Source: Paraspadella gotoi (lineage: Eukaryota > Animalia > Chaetognatha). Taken from it: 64,000 bases of DNA. Below are positions 27,801 through 57,800 of this stretch, piece after piece. Positions within the stretch are counted from its first letter, which is position 1; the number at the start of each line of letters is the position of its first letter. Where the stretch lies: the NCBI GenBank assembly GCA_051294375.1, contig JBJCIZ010000239.1, positions 6,491,539 through 6,555,538 of the forward strand. The letters run 5' to 3'. Made by a program: the position numbers and the translations under genes. The notes below the pieces were generated by a model. The model made no database searches. It saw only the letters and a program-made list of their open reading frames with translations, and was not told the origin of the DNA.

Positions 27801-30800
27801 TTAGCCCAATTACAATCATGCTGCATACGCTACACCTTCTGCCCGGGCCTGTTAAAACAACTCTGCCCCTCAACCAATGCTGGAAAGACGGAGCCAGGGG
27901 ACAGAAGCCGTCGAAAGGCACTCAGCAGCATCAACCAACAGCATTCAGACTATCACACTTTAGGGCCGGCGGCGATGCCGAGGAGGATTTGTTCTGTGGT
28001 AGTACAAATAATACCACACAAGTTCATCCAAGAATGAGCAGCACTTATGCTGTCAGACGGTACAACCGCCAAAGACTTGGGTTCGTTCCCTGCCTGATTC
28101 AATACAAGTGGAGGCGTGATGGGGTGTCTAACCCACTTTGTAGTGACAGACTACAGCACAGTTAAAGTATTGGACCTTGTGTGCAATGAACGATGGTCCT
28201 GGCATCGTTTTTTTACAACCACCTATTTTAACCTCAAATTTTGTCTAAGTTTAAACACATAGGCTCAGGGTATTAGAGTTAAGGACTACTTAATATAGAT
28301 TAGTTAGGGATTAGGCGTTAGGGGATTTTGTTTGCTAGTTATCTAGATAAAGAATTAGATTTCTAGAATTAGGATTAAAGTTAAGCATTTCGGTTTAGGG
28401 AATAGTCAGGAAAAGATTAAGGTCTAACTTAAAAATAATAACTAGACTGAGGGAAAGGACCAGATATAAGGCTTTTGTGGAAGAAAAGTTTTTGGGACTT
28501 TTTGAAACTGTTCGATAATTGAATCATCTCGAGTAAGACAGGTGTCATGCTTATAGCGGGGGTGAACTTATGCACCGACTACACCCTTCTCACTTAAAAC
28601 TCCTTCACCAATTTCTAACCCACCCAAAAATGAAAACCCCTTACCGTCATCGAAGATGTTTCTGGTAGCGAAAAAACGAATGTTTGTAGAGCGGCGACTG
28701 GTGAGGCACTCGCTAAGCGGCGACCGCCGCGGCGGAGACGGTAGGCGAGGCGCGTGGCGAGTGCGTGGCGTGGAGGGAGTGTTTGAAGGGGGTGGCGACG
28801 ACGTCGACGACGATGTTGGCTTCTCTGGTCCCCTTCTTTGCGAATTCTTCGGTCGTTTCTTGGTTCGTTTCTTCGGCAGCCGGCTTCCTTTTGGCATTAC
28901 CGATCATTCCCAGGAGTCGCTCGCAAGTGTCGGCATTCGCTCGTGGTCCAGAGGAAAGGATAAAAGAGTCATGACTTTGTCCGGGAGGATAGGGGTAGAC
29001 GCTGCGGTTTCTTCACGTGCATCTGGTTGATGGCACCAAGGTAAGCAGCGACCTTTCGCGTTGAGTTCCAGTGTTTAGGGAGAAGACGAACGATTTTTGT
29101 TTTCGAAGCGTTTGGCGCTGTGGATATTGAAGCGTTTAGGATAGAGTTAGATCGAATAGAGGAAGATAGAAGATAATCGGGTGGTAAGATGGTCACAAGC
29201 TTAGTCGCAGATAGTCTTTACAGTTACATGAAGGCTAGTGCATAGTACAACAAAAGATTCCCTGGTCTAAAATTGGAGGGGGTTGTCTTATAAAACATTC
29301 ATTGAATTATTCTCCATCCCATTATAAGAGGCCAGATGCACTGGAACTTCCTTAACTAGACTGATGGGAGAGTCTGATTGAAAGCTTCGAATCTCGCTAT
29401 GAAATAAAGTACCACCTTATAAAAATTATACTTATATTGGAATAAACAATTATCTTGCCCCTGACATTATGTCTTGGATAGTCTAGGGTCGGTTTTTTTG
29501 GCCTTCATCGCTCATACAAGATTTTACGAAGATCCTTGAACGTTTTCAATTAGACGCAATCATAGTTTAGTTTACTTACTCCCTTTGTCTCGGCTTCCCT
29601 ATCAATATTAATTCAATGGGATGATTGTAAATATCTTGTAAAAATGGATTGCAGGCGGGCTTCTTCCTCTCTCTCCTCCTCTCTCCCAACTCCTCCTCCT
29701 TTTTCCCTCCCCCCTTTCCTGCAGAGTAAAAAGGAAGGACTTTGTCTTTCAATCTCTTTCGTTGACGTAGAGTGCGAGATTGTCCCCGTACACCTGTCGG
29801 GTTTGGTTTGGAGAACAAAGTGACCCCAGCCTGCACAGGAAGTTTGATGAGAGTACATGACCCCGCCTGATGTAGCCGAGGAAGAACGGGGCTTTGAATG
29901 AACATCATGCAGGCATTGGGAAGGTAGAGGCCAGGGAAGAGGAAGATCATCAACGGCGCCGACAGCTTTCTGCTTAACCTACGGACGGGAATGTGCGAAT
30001 TACGGAAGGGGGGCAGGAGGGTGAGGGGCCGGTGGGTAGTGTGTGAGGAAGTAGGGGTGTGGGAAGGGGAAACTTTGGACTCTAAGCAAGTCTCTTACCC
30101 ACATTTTTACGCCCCATACAATACTGATGTATATTGACAAAAAAGCAATTTGAACTTTTACAATGTATCATAAAAAATACCTCGAGACTATGTGATTTCT
30201 TGAAACAGGCAGTCGTCATAACGTCTCTGCTCTATAAATATTTTTTTTTCTTGAGGCATGCTTAGTACCATGGTTTTGAATTTGATATTAAACATGGTCG
30301 TTTGAGCTCTGAAAAGTCAGCTTAGGTCCAGGTTGTTGCTGACTATTTCCCATTTAGCAACTTGGCCTATCCTCGTCTGACGTGGAGAGAGAAAAAGAAA
30401 AAAATGGAGGAAAATAACTAAAAAATTTAAAATTTGTATATTTGTCCAAATTTCTTTTTTTTAAACATCAATTTTTCTGCATCGCATTCTGGCTATATCC
30501 ATCTAAAACAGACGACAAGAACAACAACGACAATCACTCTCTCTCTGTCTCTCTTCTGTCTCTCTCTTCTCTTTCTTTCTCTTTCTCTTTCTTTCTTTCT
30601 TTCTCTTTGTACTATATATTCATTGCTATGCTAATTGTATTTATTTTATGAAATTCATATTTTTAATTTCGGTGTCACTGATTAAAAGAATAGATAAAAT
30701 ATATATAATAGTAATATTATCATATAAATAATTAATTATTATATTAGTTAAAATTTCTTTTACAGATAAAATATTACCGATGAGATGAAAAAATGAAATA

Positions 30801-36362: not shown

Positions 36363-39300
36363 TTGACACATTTTTGTCTGTGTAAATCAAATTCAATTTT
36401 AACGCTGATGAAGGCTCGCGAATAGAGCCGAAACATGTACGTTTTTTAAATGAAAATAAAATCGTTGTTGTAAACAATTCAAACGCTTTTTCTAAATGAT
36501 AAAAAACTATAATAAAAAACCCTAACCATAACTATCCAAAACCCTAAACCATCCCTAACCCTAAACAGTAAACACCCTGTAACCCGAGTTGGAGAATTTA
36601 AAATTAAGACTCTTTTTTTAATCCCTCAACTTGAATTTTTAAAACTAATATTTAATCCTAATCTGTTATTAAACATGAAACATGATCCAACCTGGACCAT
36701 TTATTCAATATTCATTAATTCTCCTTGACCACTCGTCATACATCAGACCGCGTGGCCAAATGGAGAAGGCGTCTGACTACGAATCAGGAGATTGAGGGTT
36801 CGAGTCCCTCCGCGGTTAACATTCAAAACTATTTAAACTATGCGAAATATTTTGTTTAATTTCTTCAGGCCAATCATATTATCTTTTATCCAAGCTTTTG
36901 CGTCCGAGCTCTTTGAGACTTGTTTACTCCTTTTGCTTTACCTTCAAAGCGATCTTCCCATCCAAGCTTGGGCGTCCAAGCTTTCTCTCTGGCTCAATTT
37001 TAAAACGATCTTCCCATTCAAGCTCTTGGCATCCAAGCTTTCTCTCTGCCTCACTTTTAAAGAGATCTTCGTGTCCAAGCTCTTGGCGTTAAAGCTCTCT
37101 CTCCAACTTATCTTCAAAGCAATCTTCCAATCCAAGCTCTTGGCATCCAAGCTTTCTCTCTGCCTCACTTTTAAAGCAATCTTCACATCCAAGCTCTTGG
37201 CGTCCAAGCTCTCTCTCCGCCTCACCTTTAATGCAATCTTCCCATCCAAGCTCTTGGCATCCAAGATTTTTCTCTGCCTTACCTTTTAAGCGATTATTCA
37301 ATCCAAGCTTTCTCTCTGCCTCACCTTCAATGCGATCATACCATCTTGCATTGCGATGCGATCTTCCCATCCAAGCTTTCTCTCTGCCTCACCTTCAAAG
37401 CAATCTTCCCATCCAAACTTTCTCTCTGCCTCACCTTCAAAGCGATCTTCCCATCCAAACTTTCTCTCTACCTCACCTTCAAAGCTATCTTCCCATCCAA
37501 ACTTTCTCTCTGCCTCACCTTCAAAGTGATCTTCCCATTCAAGCTTTCTCTCTGCCTCACCTTCAAAGCAATCTTCCCATCCAAGCTTTCTCTCAGCCTC
37601 ACCTTCAAAGTGATCTTCCCATCCAAACCAGTATATAAGGTGATAGACAGACGCGGGTCTATTACCCCCTCCTTCTCATTCACCTCCTCTTCATCCTCCT
37701 CCCAGGGATTCGGGGCCGCGTTCACGAGATTCAGTTCACCTTCCTCTATTCTCCTACTAGTTTCTCCCCTTTTTTTACTCTCATGATTGTCGCCGTATAG
37801 ATTTTCCTGCCGTCGTGACTTTACTTCCGGTTAGGATACCTTTTCAGAGCAAACTTTCTCTCTGCCTCACTTTCAAAGCGATCTTCCCATCCAAACTTTC
37901 TCTCTGCCTCACCTACAAAGCGATCTTCCCATCCAAGCTTTCTCTCTGCCTCATCTTCAAAGCGATCTTCCCATCGAAACTTTCTCTCTGCCTCACCTTC
38001 AAAGGGATCTTCCCATCCAAGCTTTCTCTCTGCCTCTCCTTCAAAGCGATCTTCCCATCCAAGCTTTCTCTCTGCCTCACCTTCAAAGCGATCTTCCCAT
38101 CCAAGCTCTTGGGGACGGGTTCAACTACTTCCGACACTAGGTCCGCGTTGGTCGCGTCGTCAGCTTCGATGTTCGGCAACTCTCTCCTTCTGTTTTGACA
38201 GCAGGACCAGTAGTGGGGAGTGCAAAAGAAACAAGGGTTTCTCTGAAGGAGGGGGGGAAGGAAGGGGGCGGGAGGTGGGTTGTGTAGTAAGGCGTAGTGA
38301 AAGTTACATACGAAAATTCTAAAAGTCATTTATGAACAACATACCCTCAGTGAACATTAATTTGTAAAAAAAATTAATTTTATGTTTTTTAATTTTCGCA
38401 GTAGGCTATATTTATATATAGTACTATCCTTATAAAATCAAAAAATTCAAAATAGGCTTTTCTTAATTTTGATTGCAGATTTGAATTCCTCGTCAAAAGT
38501 TGATAAAGAAAATATAAATCATTTTTAAAAATTCTTTCATTAAGTGGGTTAAAAATTAAAAAAACTATATTTAATATATAAAAAGTTAATTTTCAGCTTA
38601 AAATATAGCTTTTTCTAATTTTTGACTCACTTAATGAAGGAATTTTTCAAAAAGTTATATTTCTTTTTACCAACTTTTTATGACGAATCAAATCTGCAAA
38701 AAAATCTTAGAAAAAACTGTTTGAAATTTTAACATTTATGGTTTAGTACTAGTATAAATATGGCCTACTGCGTAAATTGTAAAATTATTAGAATTTTTTT
38801 ATTACAAATGTTTATTAGTATAGATTGGTTCGTTCCTCACTTTTAGAATTTAATTAAAGTTAAATTTAGAAATTTTACTACGCCTTATTGTGTAGTCAGG
38901 CATAGCAAAGTTCACCCCGCCTCTAAGCATGACACCTTCAGTCAAGATCCGGTGGCTCATTGAGTAAAGCCATCAGCTCATAACCACTAGGTACCGGGTT
39001 CAATCCCAACCCGGTACTTCCCTGCGGAAGTGTGAGGACGGCCGTAAGCGCCTTGGGGGCGTGGAAAACCCTCAAGCCTGGTTCCAAGCCCAGGACCCGT
39101 TCCATAGCTGCTAGAGGGGGTTAAAGAAGTTGCGGATAGTCATCTTCAGCCCACTTAGCGCCTTATCCATACTGGTGAGCCCATCCTGTTGAGCATATTC
39201 CAACCTTTTGATTCCAGGCCCATGGACGTGCTGAAGATTGCTCCCCTCCCTCCACTGGAAGCAGTGCAGGTGGGTTACAATCTGGGGGCATGTAGTCGGG

Positions 39301-41233
39301 CATAGCAAAGTTCACCCCGCCTCTCAAGCATGACACCTTAGGTTCGTGACCGTTTGGCTTTGAAATAAAGCAAAGTCAAGCTCATTGAACCTACTAGGTA
39401 TACGAGTTCAATCTCTAACCAGTAACGCCGTAAGACGTTGGGCGTGGAACTCAACTGGTTAACCAGGACTTCATACTCTCGAGGGGTTAAGTAAGTCATC
39501 TTAGCTAGCGCTATTCAAGGTAGTTGTCTTTTATATACTATAATTATATGCTAGTAAAGATTTACAATTTACTTCAGTGTACAGAAGAATATTTTTAGAC
39601 GATCTAGTAGAAGAGATTAGATGAGAGAGACCTTGTACCTAAACCATCTGGAAGAAGTTCTAATGAAATTGTTTATACAGTGTGTCCTATACTACTATAT
39701 GGCTGTGAGGTAAAAACTTTTTTGGGCTAGAGACATGAACAGAATTAATGTTGCTATTAATGATGGTATCATGAAAATTATTCGGATTCAAACCGATGGA
39801 AAGCATTAGAGAGCTTCGGACTTTAGTTTGGTTACTGTGATATTATTACATGTTTAACCAGCGTAAAAAGAACTTTATTTCCAAGATCTATAGTTCGAAA
39901 ATTTAGTTTCAAAAAAATAATCGCATTCTTTAATGATTGAAATATATTAATTGATAATTTGGACCTTTGTTGTCTGTGGTGGTGGTTTTCACGCAATCTT
40001 TAACTTTGTTTGTTTTTAGACTTAGCTTTTTTGATGCTCCTGTATGTAACTGAATCAACCTTGTTGAATCGAAATAAAACGCATTCTAAGCATGACACCT
40101 TCAGTCGTGACCGTGGCTCATTGAGTAAAGCCATCAGCTCATGACCACTAGGTACCGGGTTCAATCCCAACCAAGTGTGAGGACGGCCGTAAGCCGCCTT
40201 GGGGGGTGGAAAACCCTCAAGCCTGGTCCAAGCCCAGGATCCGTTCCATAGCTGCTCGAGGGGTTAAGAAGTTACGGATAGTCATCTTCAGCCCACTAAG
40301 CGCCTTATCCACAGTTGTAGCTTTAATGTTCGTTTATTATACATATAAAATTTTTTATTGCTAGTATTATTAAGATTATTTTATACAATATTTTAACTTT
40401 CAATTGATTGGATTGACGAGAGAGAGAGAAGAAGAAGAGAGAGAAGAGAGAGAGACACCTGCAGCCGGTTCCCGTAGACGGTGGGAAAGAAGTGCTCGAG
40501 ATAAACTGCGATAGCAAGAAGGCGATGAATTCGACAGAGAGAATATAAGACCGAGCCTGAGAAGAAATTTAATGTAATAAATATATAATAAAATACTTAA
40601 TTATATTTCAAATATCTAAATTAATAATTACTTGAAAAAAAATGTGTTGATGAACATTTTACAAATTTAAAAATAGAAAGAAAGAATAAGATTAATCTAT
40701 GAAACTTCGATCCAAAATTAAATTAATTTCAAAGTTAAAGATTAGGTTAAAGATTAAAGTTAGGGATTAGGTTGTGGATTGGCTTAAGAATTAAGATTGG
40801 GATTAAGTTTGTAATAGGGTTTAGGGATTAGAGTGAAGGATCAAAGTTAACATCAGGGATTGAATAAAAATTTGTTAAGAGGTTAGATCTTAGGGTTAAA
40901 ATAAAGTAAAACAGAAATGAGCGCGGTCTCGGTAAATAGTGCCGAAACGTGGGGTCCCTAACTGCGCCGTGAATGTCCAGTAGAGGGAAGTGCCGTCGTC
41001 TCGTTCGTCGGAAGCTCAACTTCTTCGTTGATGAGATCCCATCTGAGAGAAGGAAGAAGGAGAGGGTTGGTGGGGAGTGGGAGGGAGTGGGGAGTGGGGG
41101 AAGGGGAGAGATGGTGGGAGGAGGAGGAGGGGAGGGGAAAGGGAAGATGGGGAAGGGAAAGAATTTTAGGGAAAGGAGAGAGGAAAGGAGGAAGATGAGG
41201 AAGAGAAGAGAGAGGAAAGGAGAGAGGGTTGAT

Positions 41234-41600: not shown

Positions 41601-44600
41601 ACGTGACGCTTCGCTCGACGGCGGCGAGCCAGACGCAATGAGTGAGAGCGAGACAGATGGCGACTTGCGGTACGATGGCGAAGATGCAGGCAACGGCGAA
41701 AGGAATCAGCATCATGACGAACATGAGGATGGGTGTGGCCAGAGCAAAGAAGAAGGCGCTGATGATGCTGAAGACTGCGTTCGCGTTTTTTTGTGTGTGC
41801 GTATGTGTGTGTATTCGTGTTTATTTGTGTGGAGGTGGAGTAAGTTAAGAGGGATGGAGAGAAAGCGGGAGGAAAGGGACGGGCATTGCCTAAGTTCAAC
41901 CCGTTTCTGAGCATGACACTTTCAGTCGTGACCCGGCGGCTCATTGAGTAAAGCCATCAGCTCATGACCACTAGTTACCGGGTTCAATCCCAAACCGGGA
42001 AGCGTGAGAACGGCCGTAAGCCGCCTTGGGGGCGTGGAATTCCCAGCCCAGGACCCGTTCCATTGCTTCTAGAGGGTTTAAGGAAGTTGCGGTTAGTCTG
42101 CGGGTAGACTACCAGTCATCCTCGGCCCACTTAGCGCCTTATTCACATTAAGTTCAGGGGTCGTTCCAATGGTGGCGTAGGGTTGAAATCCTTACCCCAT
42201 ACAATTAAATCAAATCAAATCAACTAATCCAATCGATCAATCAAAATCGCATTAATACCTGCGGCGCTTTTCACGCTCTTGAAGAGAACCGAAACGACGA
42301 AGGATTGAGAAATGACGGTGAGAGAGTAAATCCAGAAAAGAATGAAGAAGACGCTCCTGCAGAGCGAATAAATTTTAAAAATATATATTATATACAAATG
42401 TATTAAAATATCTGTTCAATTCTTATCTATCTATTCTAAGCTAAATCTAAATTTATTATTCTTAATATTAATAGAAACAGTTGCTCTCCCCCTGACCATT
42501 CAATGTTGCCCACGATCCAATCCGATCCGACGACCATGATGAGCATTAGGCAACTTAGGATGAGCGCCTCGAAAGCATTGACGACGAGGTAGGACAACCA
42601 GAAGGCAGACTCCAACATGCCCATCACCCGCATCATGTCTTTGATCTGTAGGTTTGAAAAACATGGGAAGGCGTGGTTGAGGGTTGGTAGTTGGCAGGGA
42701 GGGATGGATCTGAAGAAAACTTAATTTCTGATATTATTGTAGTCGGGCATTGCCTAGGTTCACCCCGCCTATAAGCATGACTCTTTCAGTTGTGACCCGG
42801 TGGCTCATTGAGTAAAGCCATCAGCTCATGACCACTAGGTACCGGGTTCAATCCCAACCCGGTACCTACCTTGCGGGAAGAGTGAGGACGGCCGTAAGCC
42901 GCCTTGGGGGCGTGGCAAACCCTCAAGCCTGGTTCCAAGCCCAGGACCCGTTCCATGTCTGCTAGAGGGGGTTATAGAAGTTACGGATAGTCATCTTCAA
43001 CCCACTTATTATTATTATTACGCTCAAAAATTTTGTAAAGAGAGCGAATTTTGTCATTTACACATACAGAGGCAGCAAATAAATATTGTAACATATCCCA
43101 ATCCTTTCATCACCCCTCCCTAAAAATAAATTCGTTCGAAGAAAAAAAAAAAAACTAAAAAAAATAAATCTTCAAGGTTTTTGCGTGTGTAAAAATGTTG
43201 CGCAGTATGCATAGTACGCAATGCATACGAACCTAACCTTGCTCTCTTTCTCGCTGACCAACTGAACGACGAGAGAGACGTAAAATGGAATGAGACCCAA
43301 AGCCGCGGCCACGCCCAACAGATGATATTGGCCGGCGGCGCCGACTGCCGGCCGGCCATCCGGCGTGTAGGTTAGACGAGGGACGGGGAACATCTTGACG
43401 CTGTAGTTGAGACGGAGGCCGCTGATGACGGGCGGGTCGGAGCCTGGCGGGAGAGGGGGGAGGGAGAAGAAGGGAGGGAGAAGAAGGGAGGGAGAATAGG
43501 GGAGGGAGATGGTGGGAGGAAGGGAGGTGGTGGAGTGGGAATGTAAAGAACCCAAAGTTTTGATAAAACGTGATTTACATCTTTTTAAAAATGTTTAACC
43601 TTTTTTTTTTTGTAAGGTGGAAAAGACGTAAAGGGGATTTGTTTATATGTTTATATTTGATTATATATACATTCTATCCCGTGTTTAACAGCAACGTTTG
43701 TTAGAAATGATTTTAATTCAAACAAATTCTCTTCGTGAATATCTGAATTGTTTTTAGTCTCTACTTTAATGATTTTATATCTTTACTCTCATTGGTCGAA
43801 TTCTACCAATAGTAGTTAATGATTGAATTCTCAATAATTTTAAAGAAGATCTCTCTTCTCATTGGTCCATTAAATTTAGTCTTTGTATAAAAGAAAGGGC
43901 AACTTTTATTTTTTGAAGAGATTGCCCTGGGACCATAAGGTAATTGAATGATTTACTGAAATTATTAAATAGTGGAATTAGTATTAATAAATGGTTATAT
44001 TTTGTAGCTTTTGAGCTTCCACAGCTCTTCCAATGGCTCTTCCACAGCTCTTCCAATGGCTCTTCCACAGCTCTTTCAATGGCTCTACTGATTGTTATTT
44101 CGATTGTCCTTATAACTGTCAACTGAATTACAACTAACTTCAATTAATACTACTAATGGCGTTACGGTTATTGATGAGTCAACAATAGAGAAATTAATAT
44201 GAAGGATGCTCAATCGTGTTCCCAAGTCCGTAAGGAAATGTGCAATCTCTAACACCGTTAATGTTATCAGAGTAAATGTATTATGTTTTCCCTTCTCATT
44301 TTTCTTAACATTTTTAGTCGTTTATGATTAATCCCTTCTTTACAATATTAGGAACGCTTCACAATCTTAATTCACATTTCCGTCCTGGTCCAGTATCCTC
44401 CTTAAAACGACCACCCCCAACCACCCCCTCCCCAACCACCCACAACGTCCACCCTTAACCCACTTACCCCGGGTGAGTTCCTCCAAAATGGCGGATTCGA
44501 CGACCATCTGCAGCTGCGCATATCCGCTGAGGAGATAATCGTTCGGCGGGCAGTTTGAGGAGAGACCCTGGTTATTGATAGTGGTTATTGATAGTGGTTA

Positions 44601-47591
44601 ATGATTGGTGGATGGAATTGTGGATGGATCAGAGAATGGTTTTGTGGATGGATCATAGAATGGTTTTGTGGATGGATCAGAGAATGGTTTTGTGGATGGA
44701 TCAGAGAATGGTTTTGTGGATGGATCAGTGGTTAGATTAAAGAAACAAAATTCATTGCTCTTTAACTCTTAAACTGGAAATTCAAAATCGGTATCTAAAA
44801 TTTTTTTTTTTTCACTTTTTTTACCATCTTATTGAAAGAATTTTTTAAAGAAAGAATTATACTTTCTTATAAACTTTCTTATGAAATTGGTACAACCAAT
44901 ATAAAAATTATCCATTCATTTAATAAATAAGCTATCTTGCCCCTGACTTTGGACAGGCTTTGGTGGTTTAAGGCCTCCATCACTCTTACAAGATAATGAC
45001 ATAGCAGGTCCCTGCAAGCTTTCAATCAAGACTCTCTCACAGACTTGTTTATTCACTCCCAGAGTACCTGGCTTCCCTATCAATGAAGTGGAAAATATTT
45101 CAAAGAATGTTTCAATTGTATGAAAAGACCACTCCCTTAAGTATTAGATCGGGGAATACTTATTGTACTCCGCACTAGCATCAAAATACAAGGAGCTGAA
45201 TTTTATGAAATTGGTACAACCAATATAAAAATTATATCATTCCCCCCAAATTTTTTTCCCGCTCCCTACCTTCAAAAGCGGTTGGTAGCAATAACGCGTC
45301 TCCAAATAAGAAGATGCGATCGCTTGAAAATCCGCGCGTGGACCCTTTTTGGGGACCTGGAAGAGGGTGGACGGGGATCGGGAAGAGGGTTTGAGGAAGA
45401 TGAGGCGAGGAAGGGGGTGTTGATCGCCTGATCGAATCCCACCCCCCAAAAAAAAGACTGGTCACGTGACTTTATAAAAGTATGAAATAAATGCAGAGTG
45501 AAATGGAAAATCCTGATGGATCGTCTACTTTTTCCCGGGAAAACTTAACCAAACCGCGGCATTGAGTATGTCATGTCATGTCGCAATAACTCATTGGGCG
45601 TGTGAACGCGTTATCTCGTACTGAACGAGCGACAAAAAGGGAAATTTAATTTCCTGTAAACTATTTTTTTTTTTCATAATATTTTGTATTTATTTGCTTA
45701 ACGCTTTTCTTTTTTCTGAATTTTTTCGAATTTACCTGCAGAACCAAACCCGGGCCGGGCATTCGGATAGCGTATTTGGGTGTCCGGATCTTCATAGGAT
45801 CTGGAAGATATAAACAAAAATTGCGATTCTAAATTGAATCGAATGTCAGGGACGAATTTCCACGCCATCTCGTTCGTTTAATAAAGGAATTTTTGGTTGA
45901 GGCTGAATCACGAAGCTGACATTTTGACTCTATTTAGTATTTACCCTGTCGCCATTTATCACCACAAATATACGGACTTTTGCAGGTTGAATAATACATA
46001 AAACACTTCGGTCAGCTCCTCCCACGCAACTTTGTGTAATTTTGTGCAAGAGTTTCACAATAATACGAAACTGTACATTTACTTTCTGACTTTCATCTTT
46101 ATTCCAGCGACGCTCTATTTAGCTTTTTTTTAAAATGTATTATGTACTAGAAGTGCATTCATATGTTTTAAAGAAAGTAAAACATTTGTCATGTAAACTA
46201 TTCTCACTATACTAGCAAAGTAGATTTATAAAAATTAGAAAATAGAAAATTTCCTTCCAAGATTTTCGTTAAGAATAGTTTCGGGTTCCTAGCGTAGTGA
46301 CATTCTCTTTACAATGCGTATCACTATGCATATTACTATGAATAATATGCTTTTCTTAGTGACTGTTTTGATGTCGAGAAAATTGTTTCTTCAACTTCAT
46401 ACTCACGAGTCAATCGCAGTTGGAGTCCGAACCAAGAATGGAATCTACACATTTAAATGAGGGCACGATCTATAAAAAGGAGCGCCAGCGGATTCTTTAA
46501 AGCGCGAATCGTTGGCGCCGCCAATTCTTTCCCTTTACTGAATTTTCCGGCGCCGCAACCGTCACTGACGGCGTCAGAGCCCAAAAAACTCACATGGAAC
46601 GTAATCCGTGTCTTCGCCTTCGAAAACGATGGCGCCGGCAATGTTGAACTTGTAGATTCGTCGGTAGATCTCGACCAGCTTCTCGTTATTGGCCAGGATT
46701 TGACTCTCTGCCCTCTGAGGATTAATTGATCGATTTTTTGCTAAATTGATTCATAGAGTCGTTCAGATGTTTAATTAATTGTTAATATTGCTTGTTGTTT
46801 TTTTTTTTCAGGCAGGTAACGCCCGTTTTGGGTTGTGTTTGTCAACTTGTCAGAAGTGAAAAAAAAACTGCAATGATATCGATTAATTATTATATCAAAC
46901 ATTAAATCAATTAATAAATCTATCAATCAAACAAACAATCAATCAATCATTCATATTCCCTGATGAATTCCAAGATCTTTGAAAATTCTTCTTGTCATCC
47001 TTTTCACTCTCGTCGAAGATATTCCATTTTGGACGACAAAAAACTGTCGCGAGTCTCTGATGATAAATATGCAATACACAATATAAAATATTATTATATT
47101 ATTTTGTTATTATATAGTATTTTTTAAGGCGACAGACGGATAGACGGATAGTTTCTATTTGAGTACAATAAATAAAGAATTACAACTTTATTGCTGAGTC
47201 AGTATCGATGCTTCATCCGAGAAAGCCCCCCCCCTCGCGGCCCCCACCCCCCCCAAAAAAAAATAATAAAGATTCACTTTTGAGTGGTGAACTGGAAAGG
47301 CTGCTCGTTGTTGAGCGTGAACTTTTTGGGTTTGGCGTTGAAGAGTGGATAAACGGGAAAGTCGACTGCGTTCATCGCTTGATCAACTCCGTCCTTCTTG
47401 AAGATCTGTCCCAGAATGATGAAGAGCAGCACGAAGAGCAGTTCCGAGAAGGTGCGGAGAAAGCTGCGCACTTTGAGCAGAAAGTTGCGGCTCATCAACG
47501 CCCAGAATTGCGGCAGGAATCCGCCGCAACAGAAGATTTTCCTCGCCGTTTTCTTTTTGGGCGGAGGAAGGTTCGCCGGTTTGTCCGGCAT
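688..47591 (-). CDS. ABCA-subfamily ABC transporter, multi-exon gene; 3' part (rest of TMD2, NBD2) lies beyond the left edge; middle region triplicated in the assembly
   Basis: Phase-consistent GT-AG exons give an ABCA N-terminus ([15 protein letters not shown]), ECD1 motifs ([24 protein letters not shown]), [14 protein letters not shown], Walker [11 protein letters not shown]-loop [37 protein letters not shown]-domain FGLGY and [14 protein letters not shown]. Confidence 0.95.
1174..1334 (-). CDS. ABCA exon (TM8 region)
   Basis: [10 protein letters not shown]...[31 protein letters not shown]; TAG/GTTGGA. Confidence 0.85.
1476..2087. mobile_element. hAT-type MITE
   Basis: TIR TAAGGCGTAGT/ACTACGCCTTA, 8-bp TSD ATATACAT, imperfectly palindromic body. 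Confidence 0.85.
2455..2484 (-). CDS. ABCA 30-nt microexon
   Basis: Pyrimidine tract + CAG | [10 protein letters not shown] | GTGAGTAAGT, phase 0/0. Confidence 0.7.
2551..2715 (+). mobile_element. tRNA-Gly-like head (2551-2623) plus twister (family B)
   Basis: 73-nt tRNA-like unit with acceptor GCGGCCA/TGGTCGC-A, CGCCTCCCA and GGTTCAAGCC; the other arms are decayed. Confidence 0.65.
2628..2697 (+). ncRNA. Predicted twister ribozyme, P5-type (family B; assembly copies ~13470-13545 and ~26885-26960)
   Basis: P2 G(A)GG/CCC; GA-CGG; GACGCT; T2649|AA; GC; P3 CTGTA/TACAG; P4 CCTG/CAGG with A-G closure; loop TCCGAAGC; weak P5. Confidence 0.65.
3144..3309 (-). CDS. ABCA ECD2 exon
   Basis: [20 protein letters not shown]...FPMGLK; CAG/GTTTGA. 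Confidence 0.75.
3377..3717 (+). mobile_element. ~340-bp SINE-like insertion with 14-bp target-site duplication, nested in a related element
   Basis: TGTTGTGGTAGTAC at 3363-3376 and 3718-3731; internal TGGCGCCGGAGG / GGTTCACAACC boxes. Confidence 0.7.
3824..3898 (+). ncRNA. Degenerate twister-like motif (family D)
   Basis: P5 ACAAG/CTTGT; GA-TGR; GGTGTC; TAA; CCC; T2 AC/GT; P3 TTGTAG/CTACAG; loop TCTAAAGT; mismatched P2 and P4. Confidence 0.45.
4376..4836 (-). CDS. ABCA ECD2 exon with K/P/S/T-rich segment
   Basis: Open 461-nt frame [36 protein letters not shown]...[11 protein letters not shown]...NIFDDR; CAG/GTAAGG. Confidence 0.75.
5426..5668 (-). CDS. ABCA exon (TM7); donor uncertain
   Basis: [23 protein letters not shown]...KSFLFTLQ; TAG acceptor; donor either CAG|GAAAG or GAA|GTTGGG about 30 nt further. 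Confidence 0.8.
5950..6052 (-). CDS. ABCA exon (start of second half)
   Basis: [34 protein letters not shown]; CAG/GTACTT. Confidence 0.8.
6714..6816 (-). CDS. ABCA linker exon
   Basis: [33 protein letters not shown]; CAG/GTCCAG; phases match. Confidence 0.65.
7855..8041 (-). CDS. ABCA R1 domain exon
   Basis: [23 protein letters not shown]...[19 protein letters not shown]; CAG/GTGAGT. Confidence 0.93.
8022..8180. repeat. ~56-bp tandem repeat x3 spanning an ABCA splice acceptor
   Basis: GAGAGTGAAGATGATTTCCTGTGAATATYGGAGAGTGAGAT repeated. Confidence 0.88.
8516..8633 (-). CDS. ABCA R1 domain exon
   Basis: [39 protein letters not shown]; CAG/GTGAG. Confidence 0.92.
8695..9632. mobile_element. 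Foldback MITE with long TIRs and TA flanks (Tc1/mariner-like); assembly copies ~19519-20459 and ~33074-34024
   Basis: TA-CATGG(C)TGAC..ATTTTACAAGCGCCGGTA ... TACCGGCGCTTGTAAAATTGTCACCATG-TA; inverted similarity extends about 300 bp. Confidence 0.8.
9912..10027 (-). CDS. ABCA NBD1 H-loop exon (copies near 20740-20857 and 34320-34446)
   Basis: [39 protein letters not shown]; AAG/GTATGA. Confidence 0.93.
10171..22640. other. Second copy of the ABCA mid-gene block (probable assembly duplication)
   Basis: Collinear with 1634-10150 and 23581-35990; scattered indels break exons. Confidence 0.8.
23315..23533 (-). CDS. ABCA NBD1 signature/Walker B exon, cleanest copy (3' end truncated)
   Basis: [73 protein letters not shown]. 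Confidence 0.9.
34776..35029 (-). CDS. ABCA NBD1 signature/Walker B exon, indel-laden copy (another at ~21399-21650)
   Basis: Same sequence as the clean copy at 23315-23533, with frameshifts; ends ...KQGK|GTTGAA. Confidence 0.75.
35428..35511 (-). CDS. ABCA NBD1 exon, Q-loop (second, indel-bearing copy at ~22055-22141)
   Basis: [28 protein letters not shown]; CAG/GTGAG. Confidence 0.92.
35981..36223 (-). CDS. ABCA NBD1 exon, Walker A
   Basis: [38 protein letters not shown]; 5' part appears to carry indel errors. Confidence 0.92.
36746..36818 (+). tRNA. tRNA-Arg (anticodon ACG), intronic and antisense to ABCA
   Basis: 73-nt cloverleaf: acceptor GACCGCG/CGCGGTT, A box TGGCCAAATGG, anticodon arm TCTGA-CTACGAA-TCAGG, T arm GAGGG-TTCGAGT-CCCTC. 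Confidence 0.88.
36940..38108. repeat. 42-bp (distally 57-bp) minisatellite built from an ABCA exon end and its splice donor; unique insert at 37628-37850
   Basis: Minus-strand unit AGCTTGGATGGGAAGATCGCTTTGAAG|GTGAGGCAGAGAGAA = [14 protein letters not shown]. Confidence 0.92.
38081..38242 (-). CDS. ABCA exon (TMD1-NBD1 linker)
   Basis: [12 protein letters not shown]...[14 protein letters not shown]; CAG/GTGAGG; its 3' end seeds the 42-bp array. Confidence 0.85.
38288..38887. mobile_element. hAT-type MITE, same family as 1476-2087, opposite orientation
   Basis: Same TIRs; 8-bp TSD TTGTGTAG at 38280-38287 and 38888-38895. Confidence 0.88.
38891..39515 (+). mobile_element. tRNA-Met-derived, twister-bearing SINE/retrozyme-like element (family A): 400-bp monomer plus degraded second unit in tandem
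   Basis: TGTAGTCRGGCATAGCAAAG at 38891 and 39291; A box TGGCTCATTGAG, anticodon loop CTCATAA, B box GGTTCAATCC. Confidence 0.8.
39024..39100 (+). ncRNA. Predicted twister ribozyme (family A copy with two single-base homopolymer losses)
   Basis: Same elements as 42873-42951; predicted site T39045|A. Confidence 0.65.
39570..40080 (+). mobile_element. Degenerate 3' remnant of a non-LTR retrotransposon (LINE)
   Basis: Frameshifted peptide pieces [30 protein letters not shown]-like, typical of LINE ORF2 C-termini; ends near AATAAA. Confidence 0.55.
40085..40312 (+). mobile_element. Family A copy (5' truncated, P5 5' strand deleted)
   Basis: Close match to 38924-39170. Confidence 0.8.
40459..40556 (-). 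CDS. ABCA exon (TM6 end)
   Basis: ...[17 protein letters not shown], matching the ABCA YL..V.P..YG motif; CAG/GTGTCT. Confidence 0.85.
40963..41042 (-). CDS. ABCA exon
   Basis: [16 protein letters not shown]...; CAG/GTTAGG; phases match. Confidence 0.7.
41603..41774 (-). CDS. ABCA exon (TMD1)
   Basis: [18 protein letters not shown]...[11 protein letters not shown]...; CAG/GTGAGA. Confidence 0.85.
41879..42145 (+). mobile_element. Family A copy (internal deletion across P3/P4)
   Basis: Close match to 38897-39170. Confidence 0.8.
42259..42356 (-). CDS. ABCA exon (TMD1)
   Basis: [32 protein letters not shown]; CAG/GTATT. Confidence 0.9.
42497..42645 (-). CDS. ABCA exon (TMD1)
   Basis: [19 protein letters not shown]...; CAG/GTCAGG. 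Confidence 0.9.
42739..43020 (+). mobile_element. Family A copy ending in a (TTA)n tail
   Basis: Leader + tRNA head + twister, then AACCCAC-TTATTATTATTATTA; TATTATT immediately upstream of the element. Confidence 0.85.
42873..42951 (+). ncRNA. Predicted twister ribozyme, P5-type (family A, most intact copy)
   Basis: P5 GCGGG/CCCGT; P2 G(A)GT/GCC; GA-GGA; CGGCCG; T42895|AA; GC; P3 CTTGGGGG/CCCTCAAG; P4 CCTGG/CCAGG; loop TTCCAAGC. Confidence 0.8.
43238..43443 (-). CDS. ABCA exon (TM2)
   Basis: ...VKMFPVP...[21 protein letters not shown]; CAG/GTTAGG. Confidence 0.9.
44468..44567 (-). CDS. ABCA exon (ECD1)
   Basis: [33 protein letters not shown], the ABCA Y..SGF..LQ..V..AI motif; CAG/GTAAGT. 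Confidence 0.9.
44620..44728. repeat. 24-bp tandem repeat x4.5
   Basis: GTGGATGGATCAGAGAATGGTTTT. Confidence 0.85.
44881..45235. repeat. Interspersed repeat related to 4955-5330 and 62780-62920
   Basis: Shared TATCTTGCCCCTGAC, GGCTTCCCTATCAA and TAGTGC..AGTACAA motifs; ATGAAATTGGTACAACCAATATAAAAATTAT at both ends. Confidence 0.6.
45270..45356 (-). CDS. ABCA exon (ECD1)
   Basis: [29 protein letters not shown]; CAG/GTAGGG. Confidence 0.8.
45736..45800 (-). CDS. ABCA exon (ECD1)
   Basis: [21 protein letters not shown]; CAG/GTAAAT, phases match neighbours. Confidence 0.85.
46594..46714 (-). CDS. ABCA exon (ECD1)
   Basis: [40 protein letters not shown]; CAG/GTGAGT. Confidence 0.85.
46960..47056 (-). 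CDS. ABCA exon (ECD1); 3' boundary uncertain
   Basis: CAG acceptor; open frame [20 protein letters not shown]...; donor either internal AGA|GTGAAA or non-canonical CAG|GGAATA. Confidence 0.6.
47278..47591 (-). CDS. ABCA first coding exon
   Basis: [14 protein letters not shown]...[32 protein letters not shown]...; donor GTGAAT. Confidence 0.88.
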
Positions 47592-50470: not shown

Positions 50471-53235
50471 ATAACATAAGGTAAACCACGACGAAAACAA
50501 CAACAAAAACAATAATTATAACAAAAACAACAACGTCAACAACTAAAACATCAAAACACCAATGACAACAACAACTAGAATATAGAAACAATGACTACAA
50601 AACAAGAACAACAACAACGACATCTCTCCCCCCTTCTCTCTAACCAGAGACGTAGCGACGAAGAGATAAGCGGCCGCAGCGAGAATCCCTTTCTCTCCGA
50701 CGAACCCTTCCTCCACGAATCGACGGACGGGGAAGAGCGGGGAGACGCCGAAGCCCACGACGCAGCAGAGCAGCGCCTGCAGCAGCTTGCGGAAGATGGC
50801 GGAGAGAGGGGAGGGGGATTGGGAGAGAGGGGTGGGTTCCGACGGGTGGGTCTGGATTTTTGGGGGGTAAGAGGGTGAGATGGGGTGGAAAGGGCGAAAG
50901 TGGGAAAGGATGAGCGGAAAAACATTTTTTTTATTACAAAACTTTCAGATTCCAATATTTTTTTATATCACTTTCCTATTCTCATTCTCTTAACCCTTAA
51001 CTTAGTCTTAAAATGGGGTTATTTGTGAAAATATAGACGATTTTTAAGGCCAGGCATTTGAAAAAAAAAAGATTAAAGAACAAGTCAATGATTCTTTCTA
51101 TTTGCAAATGAAAAAAACGAACAAAAAACATTTTAAGTTGCGCCGCGAGTACTAGCGGTGCAACTGTCGGTCGGTCGGTCAATCAATCGGTCGGTCGGTT
51201 TGTCGGATGGTCTGTCGGTCGGTCCGTTGATCTATCCCACTTACGTTTAAATGCTCATAAGTCAGGTAATACTGCATCAATTAAATTCGGATTTGGTAGG
51301 AAGGTAAGGTATCATAAGATCTTTCTTGTGCATATGTACTATACTTGTGCAGTTCTTTTTATAGTTATAATAATTAAAAGTTGTTTTTTTTACTACTGTC
51401 CGCTACCTAATCCTCCCATCTACACCCTGCCCCCACAAAATCCCCCCCCTACCCCCCCCCTCGGCAATCGACCCACAAACCCCGGTTCTCGTATCCACGT
51501 AATTCGTTCCTTCCACGAATCTCTTGTAGTCGTGATAAAAAGCGATGGGTCCGATCAAAACTCCGTGAAAGGAAAATAGGTAGGAGAAATATTCCAGCGC
51601 CGTCGGGAGGCGTCGGTAACAGGCGTCGTTCCACGGCGCCGCGGGAACGTACGGCGTCGACGACGCCGTTTCCGGGCTGACGGGATCCTGGTCGGCGGCG
51701 TTGGTGGCGGCGGTGGCGGCTTCGTCTTCCGGCGGGCGATTGTCGTAGAGAGCGAAAGCGAGAGAAGTGGTTTTCTGAGAAAAGACGGATGTAAAAAAAA
51801 TGTAAAAAAAGGGGTAAAATTTTAAAGTGTACATATAATATAATATTGAAAAATGTAAAAATATAAAAATGTATTGTAATGACCACTCGTTTTGAAAAAT
51901 AAATATTCGCTTTCAATGAAATTCAAGAGACTTTTGTTTTTCTTCTCTATTGTCTCCAGTTCGAACTGCCCTCTAACCTTCCTCCCGTTAAACCAAAAAG
52001 GAACCGTAACGGCGAACAAAAAAAAAAGAACAGTCGACGAGCGAAAGAGGAATATCGAATTCGAAATGGCCTTTTAAACGACTCTCTCTCACTCTCACTA
52101 TCCCCTCCTTCTCCCCCCCCACATCCTGCACCTCCCCGGTGCACCTCCTACCCTCCCGTCTTCCACACCTGCACCGCCAGCGATGACGGAAGTCGCCACC
52201 GTCAACGTCCATCCTCCGTAATCGTCCACCATCCGTTCCAGGTGCAGCGCGGAGAGATAGACGAAGACCTCGGACGCCACCGCCACGTGGGACCACTTCC
52301 GGTCCACGATGGACAGCGTGATGAAGGTCGTCGTCGCCAGCGCCGCCATGTGCAGCGTGGCGACGCCGTAGCAGACGACGCAGAGCGCGAATCCGACGAG
52401 GAACTCGATCCAGTGACGGAAGCGTGGCCCGACGCGGAGTGGATGGAGGACGAAACGGAAGAAGAGGCCGAAGACGAGGGAGGCCATCTGGAAATTGGAG
52501 GATGTGGGTAAGGGGATGTGGGGGAGTAAAGTGTGGGTGGAGGATGTGGGGAAATGTTGTGGGAGGGGGAAATTGTGGTTTCGGATTGAGGTGGACGGAG
52601 GCGAGGTGAAAAAATGTAGAGATTTCATTTACTACAACTTCTTTTACATCGGCCTTACTATTTGGCTCTCTTTTTCAAACGCCCCGTTTCTGTCCTTTCA
52701 ACCCATTAACTTAATTTTAACTTTAATATATAACCCCAATTTATTGATAAACCCAATTCCTAATCTTAATTCCTAACCTTAACCTAATTTTAAACCTTAA
52801 CCCTAAACCCTAATGTTTAACCATAATTCCTAAACCTAAACTCTCGTCCCTAACCTTAATCCCAAACCTTAATCCATAACCTATTCCTCATCTCTAACCT
52901 AATCTTCAAACCAACTTGATTAAGAAATTTAAGACGAAATGGGTGGTCTTACGGAAAATGTAACCACCCCCTCCCACTTGACTCCACGATCCCTCAACAT
53001 CCACCATCCCACCCTGAGCCCTAAAGCCCAACCCCAAACCCCAAGACCCCAAACTCCTCTCCTTCCTCCCAACCTCGCAGAAGAAGACGAGGAGGATGTC
53101 CTCCGAAACGCCGATCGAGTCAGAGAGAGAGACGAGGACGGCGAAGGAGGAGGAGGAAGAGGAGGGGGGCGTGGCGACGTCTCCGTCGACGATGGACGAG
53201 GGAGAAGTCGCCGTTTGAGCAGAGACGATCGTCAT
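48799..53235 (-). CDS. MBOAT-family lysophospholipid acyltransferase (MBOAT1/2-like), 7 coding exons
   Basis: Exons 53074-53235, 52169-52487 (one apparent 1-bp error), 51481-51774, 50645-50851, 49837-49987, 49228-49366, 48799-49126. Motifs: DYGGW, QKTTSLAFALYD, LEYFSYLFSF..GP..YHDY..F.EG, RYYFGW...GFG, WNKLTSRWLR, catalytic SSVWHGFYPGYY, C-terminal KKGKTE. Confidence 0.93.
49228..49366 (-). CDS. MBOAT catalytic exon
   Basis: LKMLVDKWNKLTSRWLRHLVYVRLSAPANLLLTYFVSSVWHGFYP. Confidence 0.92.
50400..50470. repeat. (ATC)n microsatellite in an MBOAT intron
   Basis: Perfect trinucleotide run. Confidence 0.95.
51481..51774 (-). CDS. MBOAT exon
   Basis: KTTSLAFALYD...PTALEYFSYLFSFHGVLIGPIAFYHDYKRFVEG. 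Confidence 0.92.
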
Positions 53236-54813: not shown

Positions 54814-57800
54814 TTTCTTTGTTTCAAAAGTTTTTATCTCTTTGGAAAAGTCGCTTGCTGGTGTTTTAAACGTTTTTATCTCTTTTCACTTAGGAAATGT
54901 CGTCTGCCGATGTTTTTAACGTTTTTATCTATTTTTACATTGGAAAAGTCGTTTGTCGGTATTTTTTATCTTTTTTTACATTGGAAAAATCGTTTGCCGG
55001 TTTTTTTAAAGTTTTTATCTTTTTTTATATTGGAAAAGAAGTTTGCTAGTGTTTTTAACGTTTTTATCTCTTTTTACATAGGAAATGTGGTCTGCCGGTC
55101 TATTTAACGTTTTTATCTCTTTTTACATTGGAAAAGTCGTTTGTCGATGTTTTGAACCTTTTCATCTCTTTTTATATTGAAAAAGTTGTTTGACGAAGTT
55201 TTTACCGTTTTTATTTCTTTTTACATTGAAAATATCGTTTGCCGGTGTTTTCTACGTTTTTGTCTCTTTTTACATTTGAAAAAGCGATTTTCTTTGTTTC
55301 AAAAGTTTTCATCTCTTTTTATATTGGCAAAGTCGTTTTCTGGTGTTTTTAACGTTTTTATCTCTTTTTACATAGGAAATGTCGTCTGCCGGTGTATTTA
55401 ACGTTTTTATCTCTTTTTACATTGGAAAAGTCGTTTGTCGGTGTTTTTTATCTCTTTTTACATTGGAAAAATCGTTTTCCAGTGTTTTTGACTTTTTTAT
55501 CCATTTTTAAATTAAAAAAGTCGATTGTCGTTGTGAAAGTCGTTTGCCAAAGTTTTTAACGTTTTTATTTCTTTTTACATTGAAAAAGTTGTTTGCCGAT
55601 GTTTTCAACGTTTTTATCTCTCTTTACATTGGAAAAGTCGTTTGTCAACTTTTACCCTTTTTACATTGGAAATGTCGTTCTGCCGGTTTGTATTTAACGT
55701 TTTATCTTTTTACATTGGAATGTCTTCTGGCGGTGTATTTAACGTTTTTTATATCTTTTTTACATTGGAAAGTCGTTTGGCGATGTTTTAACCTTTTTAT
55801 CTCTTTTTATATTGAAAAAGTTTTGTTGCCGAAGTTTGTTTAACGTTTTGATTTTCTTTTTACATTGAATATTCGTTTTCGCCGGTGTTTTCTACGTTTT
55901 TATCTTTTTTTACGATGGGAAAAGCGTTTTCTAAAGTTTTTTATGTACTTTTTATATTTGAAAAGGTCGTTTGTCGTCTGTTTTTAACACATTTATTTCT
56001 TTTTTACATTTGGAATAAATCGTGTTTCTATTAATTTTTAACGTTTTTCATTTATTTCTTTACACAAGGAAAAGTCGGTTTTCTGTTTGTTTTTTAACGT
56101 TATTCTATTCTCTTTTTCTTTGAAAATATCGTTTTTTCCGGTTGTTTTTCACGTTTTATCTCTTTTACATTGGAAAAAAGCGTTTTTCTTTGTTTTAAAG
56201 TTTTTATCTTCCTTTACATTGAAGAAGTTGTTTTCTGGTGTTTTCAACCTTTTTTTATCCTTTTCTTACAATGGAAAAGACGTTGTGTTTCGGTGTTTTA
56301 CGTTTTTTATCTTTTTTGGTTTGGAAAAGTTCGTTTTCTGGTGTTTTTTAAAGTTTTCAGCTCCTTTACATAGGCAAAAGACAAAGGAAAAGTCCTTTTT
56401 CGGTGTTTTTAACGTTTTCTCTATTTTTACAAAAGAAAAGTCGCTTTTTTGTTTTAACGTTTTTAGCTTTTTTACGACGAATAGTCGTTTGACAGGTTTT
56501 TTAACGTTTTATTTCTTTTTTATTGGAAAAGTCGTTTGCCAAAGTGTTAGACGTTTTATCTCTATTTTTACATTGGAAAAAGCGTTTTGCTTTTTCTTTG
56601 TTTTTTAATAGTTATTATCTTTTTGGAAAAGTCGTTTTGCTTGTGTTTCTTTAACGTGTTTTATCTCTTTTTACATAGGAAATGTCGTCTGCCCGGAGTG
56701 TATTTAACGTTTTATTGTTTTTACATTAGAAAAGTCGTTTATCGGTATTTTTTATCTTTTTTTACATTGCGAAAAATCGTTTGGCCGGTTTTTTTTAAAG
56801 TTTTTTATCTCTTTTTTACATTGAAAAGTTGTTGTGTCGAGTTTTTAACCTCTTTTACCTCTTTTTATATTGCAAAATGTTTTCCAAGTTTTTAGTTTTT
56901 TTCTTTCATTATAAATTGTTTCACGTTTTTACTTTTAATGTTTTACATTGGAAAAAGTATTCTTTCTTTGTTTTTAAATTTGTTTATCTCTTTAACTTGG
57001 AAAAATCAGTTCCGTGTCTTTAAGTTCTAATTGTTCTCTTTTATAATGGAAAAGTCGTTTGCGGAATTTTTTAACGCATTTATTTTCTTTTACATTGGAA
57101 AAAATCCGTCTTTTCTGTCATTTTTAACGTTGTTTCATATCTTTTTACCAAACGGCAAGTCAGTTTTCTTGGTGTTTTAAACGTTTTTATCTCTTTGAGA
57201 GTGAGATGAAAGCTACAGATAATTAACAAGAGAAAAAGGCCGAAGATGAAGAAGAGTAATAAGAGAGAAATTGTTTGTTTTGATAAATTGTAAAAAAAAA
57301 CATTAAAATTTAATAACTCTCCTCACCCAGCGATGATGTTTGCAGAAGTTTTTAACGTTTTTTTTTTCTTTTTTCTTTGAAAAACGTTTTGAGGTGTTTT
57401 CTACGTTTTATCTCTTCTATACATTGAAAAAAGCGTTGTCTTTCATCTCGTTTGTACATTGAAGAAGTTGTTATCTTGGTGTTTTCAACCTTTTTATCCT
57501 TTTTACAATGGAAAAGGACGTTTTTTCGGTTTTTTTAACGGTTTTATTTCTTTTGACATTTGGAAAAAGTCGTTTTCTGGGTTTTTAACGTTTTTAGATC
57601 TTGTTTACATAGGCGAAAGAAAACGTGAGAATTCGTTTTTCGGCTGTTTTCTAACGTTTTTTAGCTCTTCTTTACATAGGAAAGAAAAGGAAAAGTCGGT
57701 TTTTCGGGATGTTTTTTAACGTTTTTTTCTCTTTTTACAAAGAAAGTCGTCTTTTTTTGATGTTTTTTAACGTTTTTAGCTTTTTTCTTACATTCAGTAA

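Follow-up and report, generated by a model that had tools for sequence, protein, structure and literature searches.

The 64,000-nt stretch of Paraspadella gotoi DNA analysed here (hereafter the window; assembly GCA_051294375.1, contig JBJCIZ010000239.1, positions 6,491,539–6,555,538 of the forward strand) contains, at 38891–40313, what is very probably a miniature non-autonomous retrotransposon of the long terminal repeat (LTR) type with an LTR–internal–LTR anatomy. On its sequence features, the element is a terminal-repeat retrotransposon in miniature (TRIM) of the Helenus type. What is new here is a twister-like motif of unusual form within the LTR of a TRIM, by which the element becomes a candidate animal LTR retrozyme. 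The full element comprises 281 + 119 + 281 bp (681 bp in total), and its 3' LTR is interrupted at this locus. The features of the element, its solo copies, a fragment of its LTR, and an unrelated repeat family (family B) carrying a similar motif are as follows (MITE stands for miniature inverted-repeat transposable element and PBS for primer-binding site, PPT for polypurine tract and LINE for long interspersed nuclear element).

38279–38282 (+): left 4-bp target duplication, GTTG; the MITE lies between it and the LTR, and the same four letters follow the LTR end at 40313
38288–38887 (strand not assigned): MITE with short terminal inverted repeats and an 8-bp target duplication (38280–38287 and 38888–38895), lying 5 nt into the 5' LTR; from comparison of copies
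38891–39171 (+): 5' LTR, 281 bp, TG start, TA end here (CA in most contigs); from copies and contigs
38891–38945 (+): leader preceding the tRNA-like head, a U3-like portion of the LTR; from the sequence and LTR anatomy
38946–39017 (+): tRNA-Met-like head with A box (38953–38964), CAT anticodon-like loop, and B box (38997–39007); from box motifs
39030–39094 (+): type-P5 twister-like motif, predicted cut between 39045 and 39046; from motif parse and Rfam model
39172–39290 (+): internal region, 119 bp, multi-copy in the genome; from contigs
39173–39190 (+): PBS-like site, TGG one base past the LTR end; from the sequence
39284–39288 (+): short G-run, PPT-like, two bases ahead of the 3' LTR; from the sequence
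39291–39339 (+): clean start of the 3' LTR; from copies and contigs
39340–39670 (+): duplicate, full of small indels, of the LTR remainder at 40102 together with the adjoining flank; from alignment
39670–40084 (+): broken 3' fragment of a presumably LINE-like element, apparently interrupting the 3' LTR; from a 17-nt duplication (39322–39339 and 40085–40101)
40085–40313 (+): rest of the 3' LTR (LTR positions 32–281), CA end; twister loop one base short in the assembly
40314–40317 (+): right 4-bp target duplication, GTTG
41882–42147 (+): solo LTR, 5' end and twister P4 damaged
42738–43008 (+): solo LTR, last 14 nt absent, twister motif intact (42880–42945)
4266–4309 (−): LTR leader fragment alone; from BLAST
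44942–44985 (−): predicted loopless-palindrome twister in family B; from Rfam and motif parse

Evidence on copies in the genome at large was taken from contigs of four runs (X1, X2, X5, and X9, the last perhaps RNA) belonging to three studies and matched at a likeness of at least 80%. One source of these contigs (P1) may be the assembly's own source, shares of contig depth are not copy counts, and a junction from the internal region into the LTR reads alike for an RNA circle and a genomic copy. The LTR motif analyses covered the four clean LTR copies in the window (38891, 40085, 41882, and 42738).

A BLAST search of 38891–39290 against the window gave forward matches at 39291, 40085, 41882, and 42738 and short reverse matches at 4309 and 28583. 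The initial annotation had described a unit that restarts exactly 400 bp later, and this restart is borne out, the copy at 39291 matching that at 38891 with 79% identity over 136 nt (E 3e-19). The annotation's further claim, that 400 nt is the repeat unit of a tandem array, does not hold, because the forward copies in the window are common only over their first ~280 nt and the last 119 nt (39172–39290) are single-copy in the window and multi-copy in the genome contigs; the 400-bp spacing is that of a 281-bp LTR plus a 119-bp internal region. Three of the five forward copies share the TG start and three of the five have a constant end at ~280 nt; with both ends of the 281-nt repeat constant, the supposed circular permutation had to be abandoned, and readings as a Penelope-type pseudo-LTR or on the reverse strand were dropped on the same ground. 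Copies had also been said to begin well upstream of the tRNA head. Those at 38891, 39291, and 42738 do share a TGTAGTC start, 62 nt before the A box, whereas the first 8 nt are missing at 41882 and the first 31 nt at 40085. The leader had been taken to imply a circular RNA; as the layout is that of a Helenus TRIM, however, these 55 nt are ordinary LTR sequence upstream of the transcription start, and LTR reverse transcription restores the sequence upstream of the tRNA head.

The start at 38891 doubles as a target duplication of the MITE at 38288–38887, which was inserted into the LTR start. Because the MITE sits 5 nt inside the start of the 5' LTR, the true left flank of the element is at 38282. 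The MITE, which we take to be hAT-like by the length of its target duplication, has a sister copy at 1469–2094 (94.6%), and partial copies of the same family, which has 8-bp target duplications, lie at 10171, 12742, 23581, and 26152. The lone leader previously placed in reverse at 4263–4310 is present at 4266–4309, but its repeats at 28540–28583 and ~15135–15177 belong to a single locus carried in an 11-kb block that is present three times, and represent one event. It ends right before the tRNA head, is preceded by a purine run, and may be either an LTR cut short or a relative of the LTR that has no tRNA part. The block itself (1911–35978; ~11 kb three times at 85–93% identity, joined across N gaps) is likely a haplotype or noisy-read duplication and a sign of low assembly quality.

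The contigs agree with the boundaries of an LTR element. Those spanning the passage from the LTR into the internal region were found in all four runs and all three studies, and the passage from the internal region into a new LTR start is represented by a joint (39307–38910) in X1 and by five loose ends in X5. After 39169, 96 contigs in X1 and 100 in X2 leave into unrelated flanking sequence (agreement 0.41, consensus opening CA), and 22 contigs in X5 come from unrelated sequence into the LTR start. Position 39170 is changed from T to C in 99% of contig depth, the variant sites of the internal region are found in 17–44 contigs per run (X1 and X2), and an extra G is present in the PPT-like run at 39284–39288 in many contigs. 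The PBS-like site matched neither the single tRNA of the window nor, in a search for self-priming, the element itself. The flanks of the solo LTR at 42738 are compatible with a 4-bp target duplication but confounded by a TTA run. Loose contig ends on 42850–42975 point to a second LTR subfamily, with a different end of the tRNA head and a different downstream part, in which the twister stretch retains at least 80% likeness.

The second unit of the supposed tandem had been regarded as a degraded, independently diverged copy. Its first 49 nt are clean and many small indels begin at about 39340, but 39320–39680 aligns with the LTR at 40085 together with its right flank (28 mismatches, 124 gap columns, and 34 gap events over 449 columns; 4 and 8 gap events for clean LTR copies). 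The flank by itself scored 90, compared with maxima of 75 both in 1000 shuffles and among 252 other window segments, and the flanks of the other two copies scored 48 and 36. Since two independent insertions would not have a common flank, a separate insertion is unlikely for 39340–39670, which is probably unpolished long-read sequence laid in by the assembler as a duplicate; the tandem with its degraded second unit is thus probably an assembly artefact over a 3' LTR. The simplest reading is a single 3' LTR that is interrupted at LTR position ~32–50 by the fragment at 39670–40084 and would join 39339 to 40085. We take this fragment to be LINE-like from a short peptide motif, and X9 contigs cover 39686–40011 almost exactly. 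The interval 39384–39611 has no contig cover at 80% in any of the four runs, with no crossing among the 15 of 195 joints listed, and this hole was not used as evidence.

The boxes at 38953 and 38997 fit the TRGCY and GGTTC motifs given in the available text of PMC10886601, and neither ARAGORN nor Rfam called a tRNA in the head at 38946–39017. All four clean LTR copies lack a T4 run, so RNA polymerase III (Pol III) would read through the LTR, including the 174 nt that follow the B box, which contain the twister-like motif and no T-run; the sole T4 run of the internal region (39208) is read otherwise in 99% of contig depth.

The LTR motif has the parts of a type-P5 twister in the order GA-GGA, loopless palindrome CGGCCG, TAA, GC, P3 hairpin, and P4 with an 8-nt loop, the P1 hairpin being reduced to the 6-nt palindrome. 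Both pseudoknots are Watson–Crick complementary. The conserved GA-nnn, UAA, 8-nt L4 loop, and two pseudoknots are present in two of the four clean LTR copies and in family B, whereas a P1 hairpin, a P2 of 3–4 bp, and a score at the gathering level are found in neither family (16–26 bits versus 37.6). When the two intact copies were scanned alone, the Rfam Twister-P5 model (RF02684) picked the same stretch in both, with 16.3 and 17.3 bits (17.3 for 39030–39094). The whole-window Rfam scan did not report the LTR motif, and no hammerhead was found in the LTR by Rfam or by motif scan. A strict descriptor matched three times in the window and never in 300 shuffled windows, although it was written after the matches had been seen; a loose descriptor gave 16 matches in 40 shuffles, i.e. 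0.4 by chance per window, and its match at 45913–45851 is likely due to chance. Among 3311 X1 contigs on the 42738 copy, variation at each of the 34 core positions stays within 2.7% of depth. Five sites exceed 5%, all structure-neutral: three in the P3 loop, one unpaired site, and one change from G.U to A-U (a hypergeometric test for avoidance of the core by variants gave P 0.003, with classes set after the data were seen). A metagenome scan with the P4 arm of the LTR motif yielded 47 loci, none related to the LTR; 20 of the 47 were run against Rfam, and six loci, readable as type-P5 twisters that share the GAGGA and UAA, showed the correct register of the LTR motif. A viral scan for the palindrome half returned 29 loci (11 contexts coding-like) with no matching P4, and a scan of prokaryote genomes returned none. 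A type-P1 reading with the downstream GAGGG was dropped, as it has no P2.

In family B, the whole-window Rfam scan found a weak Twister-P5 match at 44942–44984 (25.8 bits, E 0.32). Between the LTR motif and family B, GGA:UCC is replaced by UGG:CCA, GC:GC by AC:GU, and CGGCCG by AGGCCU; both pseudoknots, P4, and the palindrome show compensatory changes. Together, these data suggest that the LTR motif is a twister-like motif of type P5 in an unusual loopless form, for which cleavage is predicted. The Pol III and twister part of the initial annotation is retained in so far as the boxes without a T4 run and a twister-like motif are present and the predicted cuts lie 400 nt apart, an arrangement like that of plant LTR retrozymes, but the Rfam scores are below threshold.

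From these features, a replication route can be proposed. Pol III would start near 38946 in the 5' LTR and read through the 3' LTR. Six palindromic bases are too few for a P1 hairpin, so the motif would fold as a dimer, in which the palindrome (−10.7 kcal/mol for self-pairing as a duplex) would bring together the two LTR copies, 5' and 3', of a single transcript, and both would be cut at U^A. The ~400-nt piece between the cuts would hold one permuted LTR, the PBS, and the PPT without terminal redundancy and would therefore need ligation to a circle, by an RtcB-type ligase, from which a Gypsy-type enzyme primed by a host tRNA would rebuild the LTR–internal–LTR form; solo LTRs would cut poorly. 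In the available text of the sources, dimeric cleavage is described for hammerheads with a short palindromic stem in tandem repeats (PMC6765202, PMC7229834), and a circle was proposed for plant retrozyme RNA lacking terminal redundancy (PMC4918200). We put the whole route, in which the twister-like motif cuts a Pol III transcript to a ~400-nt RNA that is circularized and reverse-transcribed, at a little short of an even chance. The more specific version is tentative and rather doubtful: an animal LTR retrozyme operating on an obligate-dimer twister, driven by Pol III through a ~400-nt circle, with the same twister in a second, Penelope-like repeat.

Several observations weigh against these proposals or against the underlying anatomy. 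The Rfam scores of 16.3 and 17.3 bits are far under the gathering score of 37.6; P2 consists of two pairs followed by a mismatch (3–4 pairs in the metagenome controls); and the whole core is kept in only two of the four clean window copies. Folding, in which pseudoknots were not modelled, supports P4 (pair probability 0.89–0.99) and not P3 in the 42738 copy (0.01), and folds pair core bases elsewhere. Cofolding of two copies gave no palindrome helix, and the 400-nt unit as a circle is no stabler than shuffled sequences (z −0.16), unlike described retrozyme circles. The low variation of the core may stem from the youth of the family and from the 80% cut-off. A point in favour of the motif, that natural twisters tolerate defects in P1 and P2 though not in the pseudoknots, comes from type-P1, not P5 (PMC11662667, in the part of that study available). 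The replication of an LTR element needs no ribozyme. As to the anatomy, the GTTG pair comes from a single element in a noisy assembly, neither a primer tRNA nor an autonomous partner could be assigned, and the join of 39339 to 40085 is one that we infer, X9 record 30 reaching only 17 nt into the second LTR.

Many of these points would be expected of an ordinary Helenus-type TRIM carrying a dead or dispensable twister relic, from which Pol III would read to the first T-run of the flank and produce a linear RNA with long terminal redundancy, to be reverse-transcribed as in other LTR elements. The sub-threshold scores, the weak P2 and absent P1 loop, the competing folds with unremarkable circle stability, and the absence of ribozymes from the available descriptions of Helenus all fit a relic, but both pseudoknots and the catalytic bases are intact, common variants avoid the core, and the unrelated family B keeps the odd layout with compensatory changes; this explanation thus has a real though minor share of the probability. 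An active twister might instead substitute for a terminator, only the 3' LTR copy cutting in time, which would leave a linear RNA with 100 nt of terminal redundancy and no circle. The start-to-cut distance of 100 nt agrees with this, as do the lack of a T4 run in the four clean LTRs, the alternative reading of the internal T4 run in 99% of depth, and the T-run that follows the tRNA part in most published Helenus LTRs (25 judged by eye from the accessible part of the source). Identical LTR copies, however, would need an extra rule for one-sided cutting, and in a dimer paired through the palindrome the two active sites would form at once, so that we consider a terminator role improbable.

Two further explanations dispense with LTRs. 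The initial annotation favoured a non-LTR retrozyme or a short interspersed nuclear element (SINE), with head-to-tail arrays of 400-nt units and permuted copies arising from circular RNA. The 400-bp restart is compatible with it, as are, in the available literature, the combination of Pol III boxes and ribozyme in Schistosoma SINE-like repeats and the occurrence of tandem arrays in some Helenus elements. It is nevertheless very improbable given the fixed TG and CA ends, the PBS-like and PPT-like sites, the 4-bp target duplication, the solo 280-nt copies, and a second unit that copies another locus together with its flank. Equally remote is a tRNA-derived SINE of ~280 nt with the 119-nt piece as a separate repeat between two copies: the TTA run that closes the 42738 copy resembles a LINE-type tail, but in other, diverged copies the 119-nt piece is joined to an LTR end on the left and to an LTR start on the right, and the tRNA head is preceded by 55 nt of fixed sequence. 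Of the readings considered, the route through paired LTR motifs and a ~400-nt circle remains the most likely.

Compared with the Helenus TRIMs (TRIMp3; Kojima 2024, PMC10886601), as far as the accessible part of that report describes them, the element shares the short LTR pair, A and B boxes derived from a tRNA, a short internal region that is non-coding, starts with TGG and ends in a G-run, the 4-bp target duplication known in animals, many solo LTRs, and a length (681 bp) within the range of 311–1263 bp. The corresponding features identified here are a TG...CA LTR pair, a size under ~1.3 kb, the boxes, the PPT (G-run 39284–39288, short but similar to the published ends of internal regions), and a 4-bp target duplication (one element). 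In the 25 Helenus LTRs inspected by eye, no more than ~65 nt separate the B box from the LTR end and a T-run mostly comes after the box, whereas here 174 nt follow without one. The available text names no ribozyme in Helenus, and a short-motif search of the LTRs in the accessible supplement found no twister-like LTR in the matching passages, although line breaks there can hide matches. Plant LTR retrozymes (Cervera 2016, PMC4918200), according to the part of the paper available, resemble the element in having a ribozyme in each LTR, a PBS, a PPT, a 4-bp target duplication, and a cut-to-cut RNA that lacks terminal redundancy and needs circularization. Their ribozyme is a type III hammerhead and their size 600–1000 nt, in contrast to the type-P5 twister-like motif, the ~400 nt, and the likely animal host found here; the tRNA-derived Pol III boxes and a predicted circle without unusual folding stability also set the element apart. 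Lacking a hammerhead in each LTR, it may work like an LTR retrozyme but is not a member of that class as defined.

Animal non-LTR retrozymes, the class to which the initial annotation assigned the element, have RNAs in the size range predicted here (170–400 nt) and ribozymes that may have to act as dimers (PMC7229834; bioRxiv 10.64898/2026.07.22.740005). In the accessible parts of these sources they form arrays with type I hammerheads, are tied to Penelope-like elements, and have no LTR, PBS, or PPT, as the available text of a review also states (PMC7761336); the element has LTR–internal–LTR structure, PBS-like and PPT-like sites, and a 4-bp target duplication, and type I hammerhead arrays are not part of it. 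The motif agrees with the type-P5 twister (RF02684) in part order, GA-nnn, UAA, the 8-nt P4 loop, and both pseudoknots, and departs from it in the loopless 6-nt palindrome, the 2-pair P2, a long P3 insertion, and the sub-gathering score. The Schistosoma T-variant twisters of Perere-3, as described in the available part of PMC8501958, are likewise twister variants with a weak P1 in an animal retroelement, but they are type-P1 and located at the 5' end of an autonomous LINE, whereas the motif here is type-P5 and lies inside an LTR. Cassandra TRIMs also have a Pol III promoter in the LTR, which, per the accessible text of PMC10886601, is 5S-derived and found in plants, with no ribozyme described. 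In the portion of the literature available, LTR elements with a twister, Helenus elements with a ribozyme, and twisters acting as dimers were all absent, although such a variant may be listed in the original twister paper or in the supplements of the twister surveys.

LTR retrozymes have so far been described from plants, with hammerheads. If the proposed route is correct, a twister-bearing, Pol III-driven TRIM would unite two separately described classes, the ribozyme-to-circle route of LTR elements would have arisen again with another ribozyme, and the palindrome-paired dimer would be a new structural form of twister lying below Rfam thresholds. It would also offer a testable role for twisters of eukaryotes, which for the most part lack one. 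With a dead motif, the element is a new Helenus family of modest interest.

Just past P4, 39097–39135 pairs in some folds with GGACGG of the twister or with a downstream RCGG, in which a common G/A variant preserves the pairing; on these models, a folding switch is possible. One metagenome contig (L032/L033) is viroid-like: it matches type-P1 twisters on one strand, its other strand carries hairpin ribozymes, and the pattern is repeated.

Family B, which we take to be Penelope-like, is located at 44879–45235, 62777–62919, and 4953–5324 (copies near 15835–16206 and 29234–29606). It has 33-bp direct repeats 324 bp apart, with the twister on the minus strand, and its diverged copies occur as inverted pairs. 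It is a better candidate than the LTR element for the non-LTR retrozyme idea of the initial annotation. A minimal hammerhead-like core of the Penelope-like kind (CTGATGA, hairpin, GAAA) was detected by motif scan at 36405–36433 (+), and a tRNA-Arg(ACG) gene lies at 36746–36818. Degenerate satellite arrays occupy 36934–38112 and 54814–62280. Exons of an MBOAT (lysophospholipid acyltransferase) gene were identified at 51406–52628 (−), with only two relatives, at 50–53%, which points to a fast-evolving, thinly sampled lineage. The closest (P0001, 53%) has named matches that are almost all animal, at ~33%, and the host is accordingly likely to be an animal.

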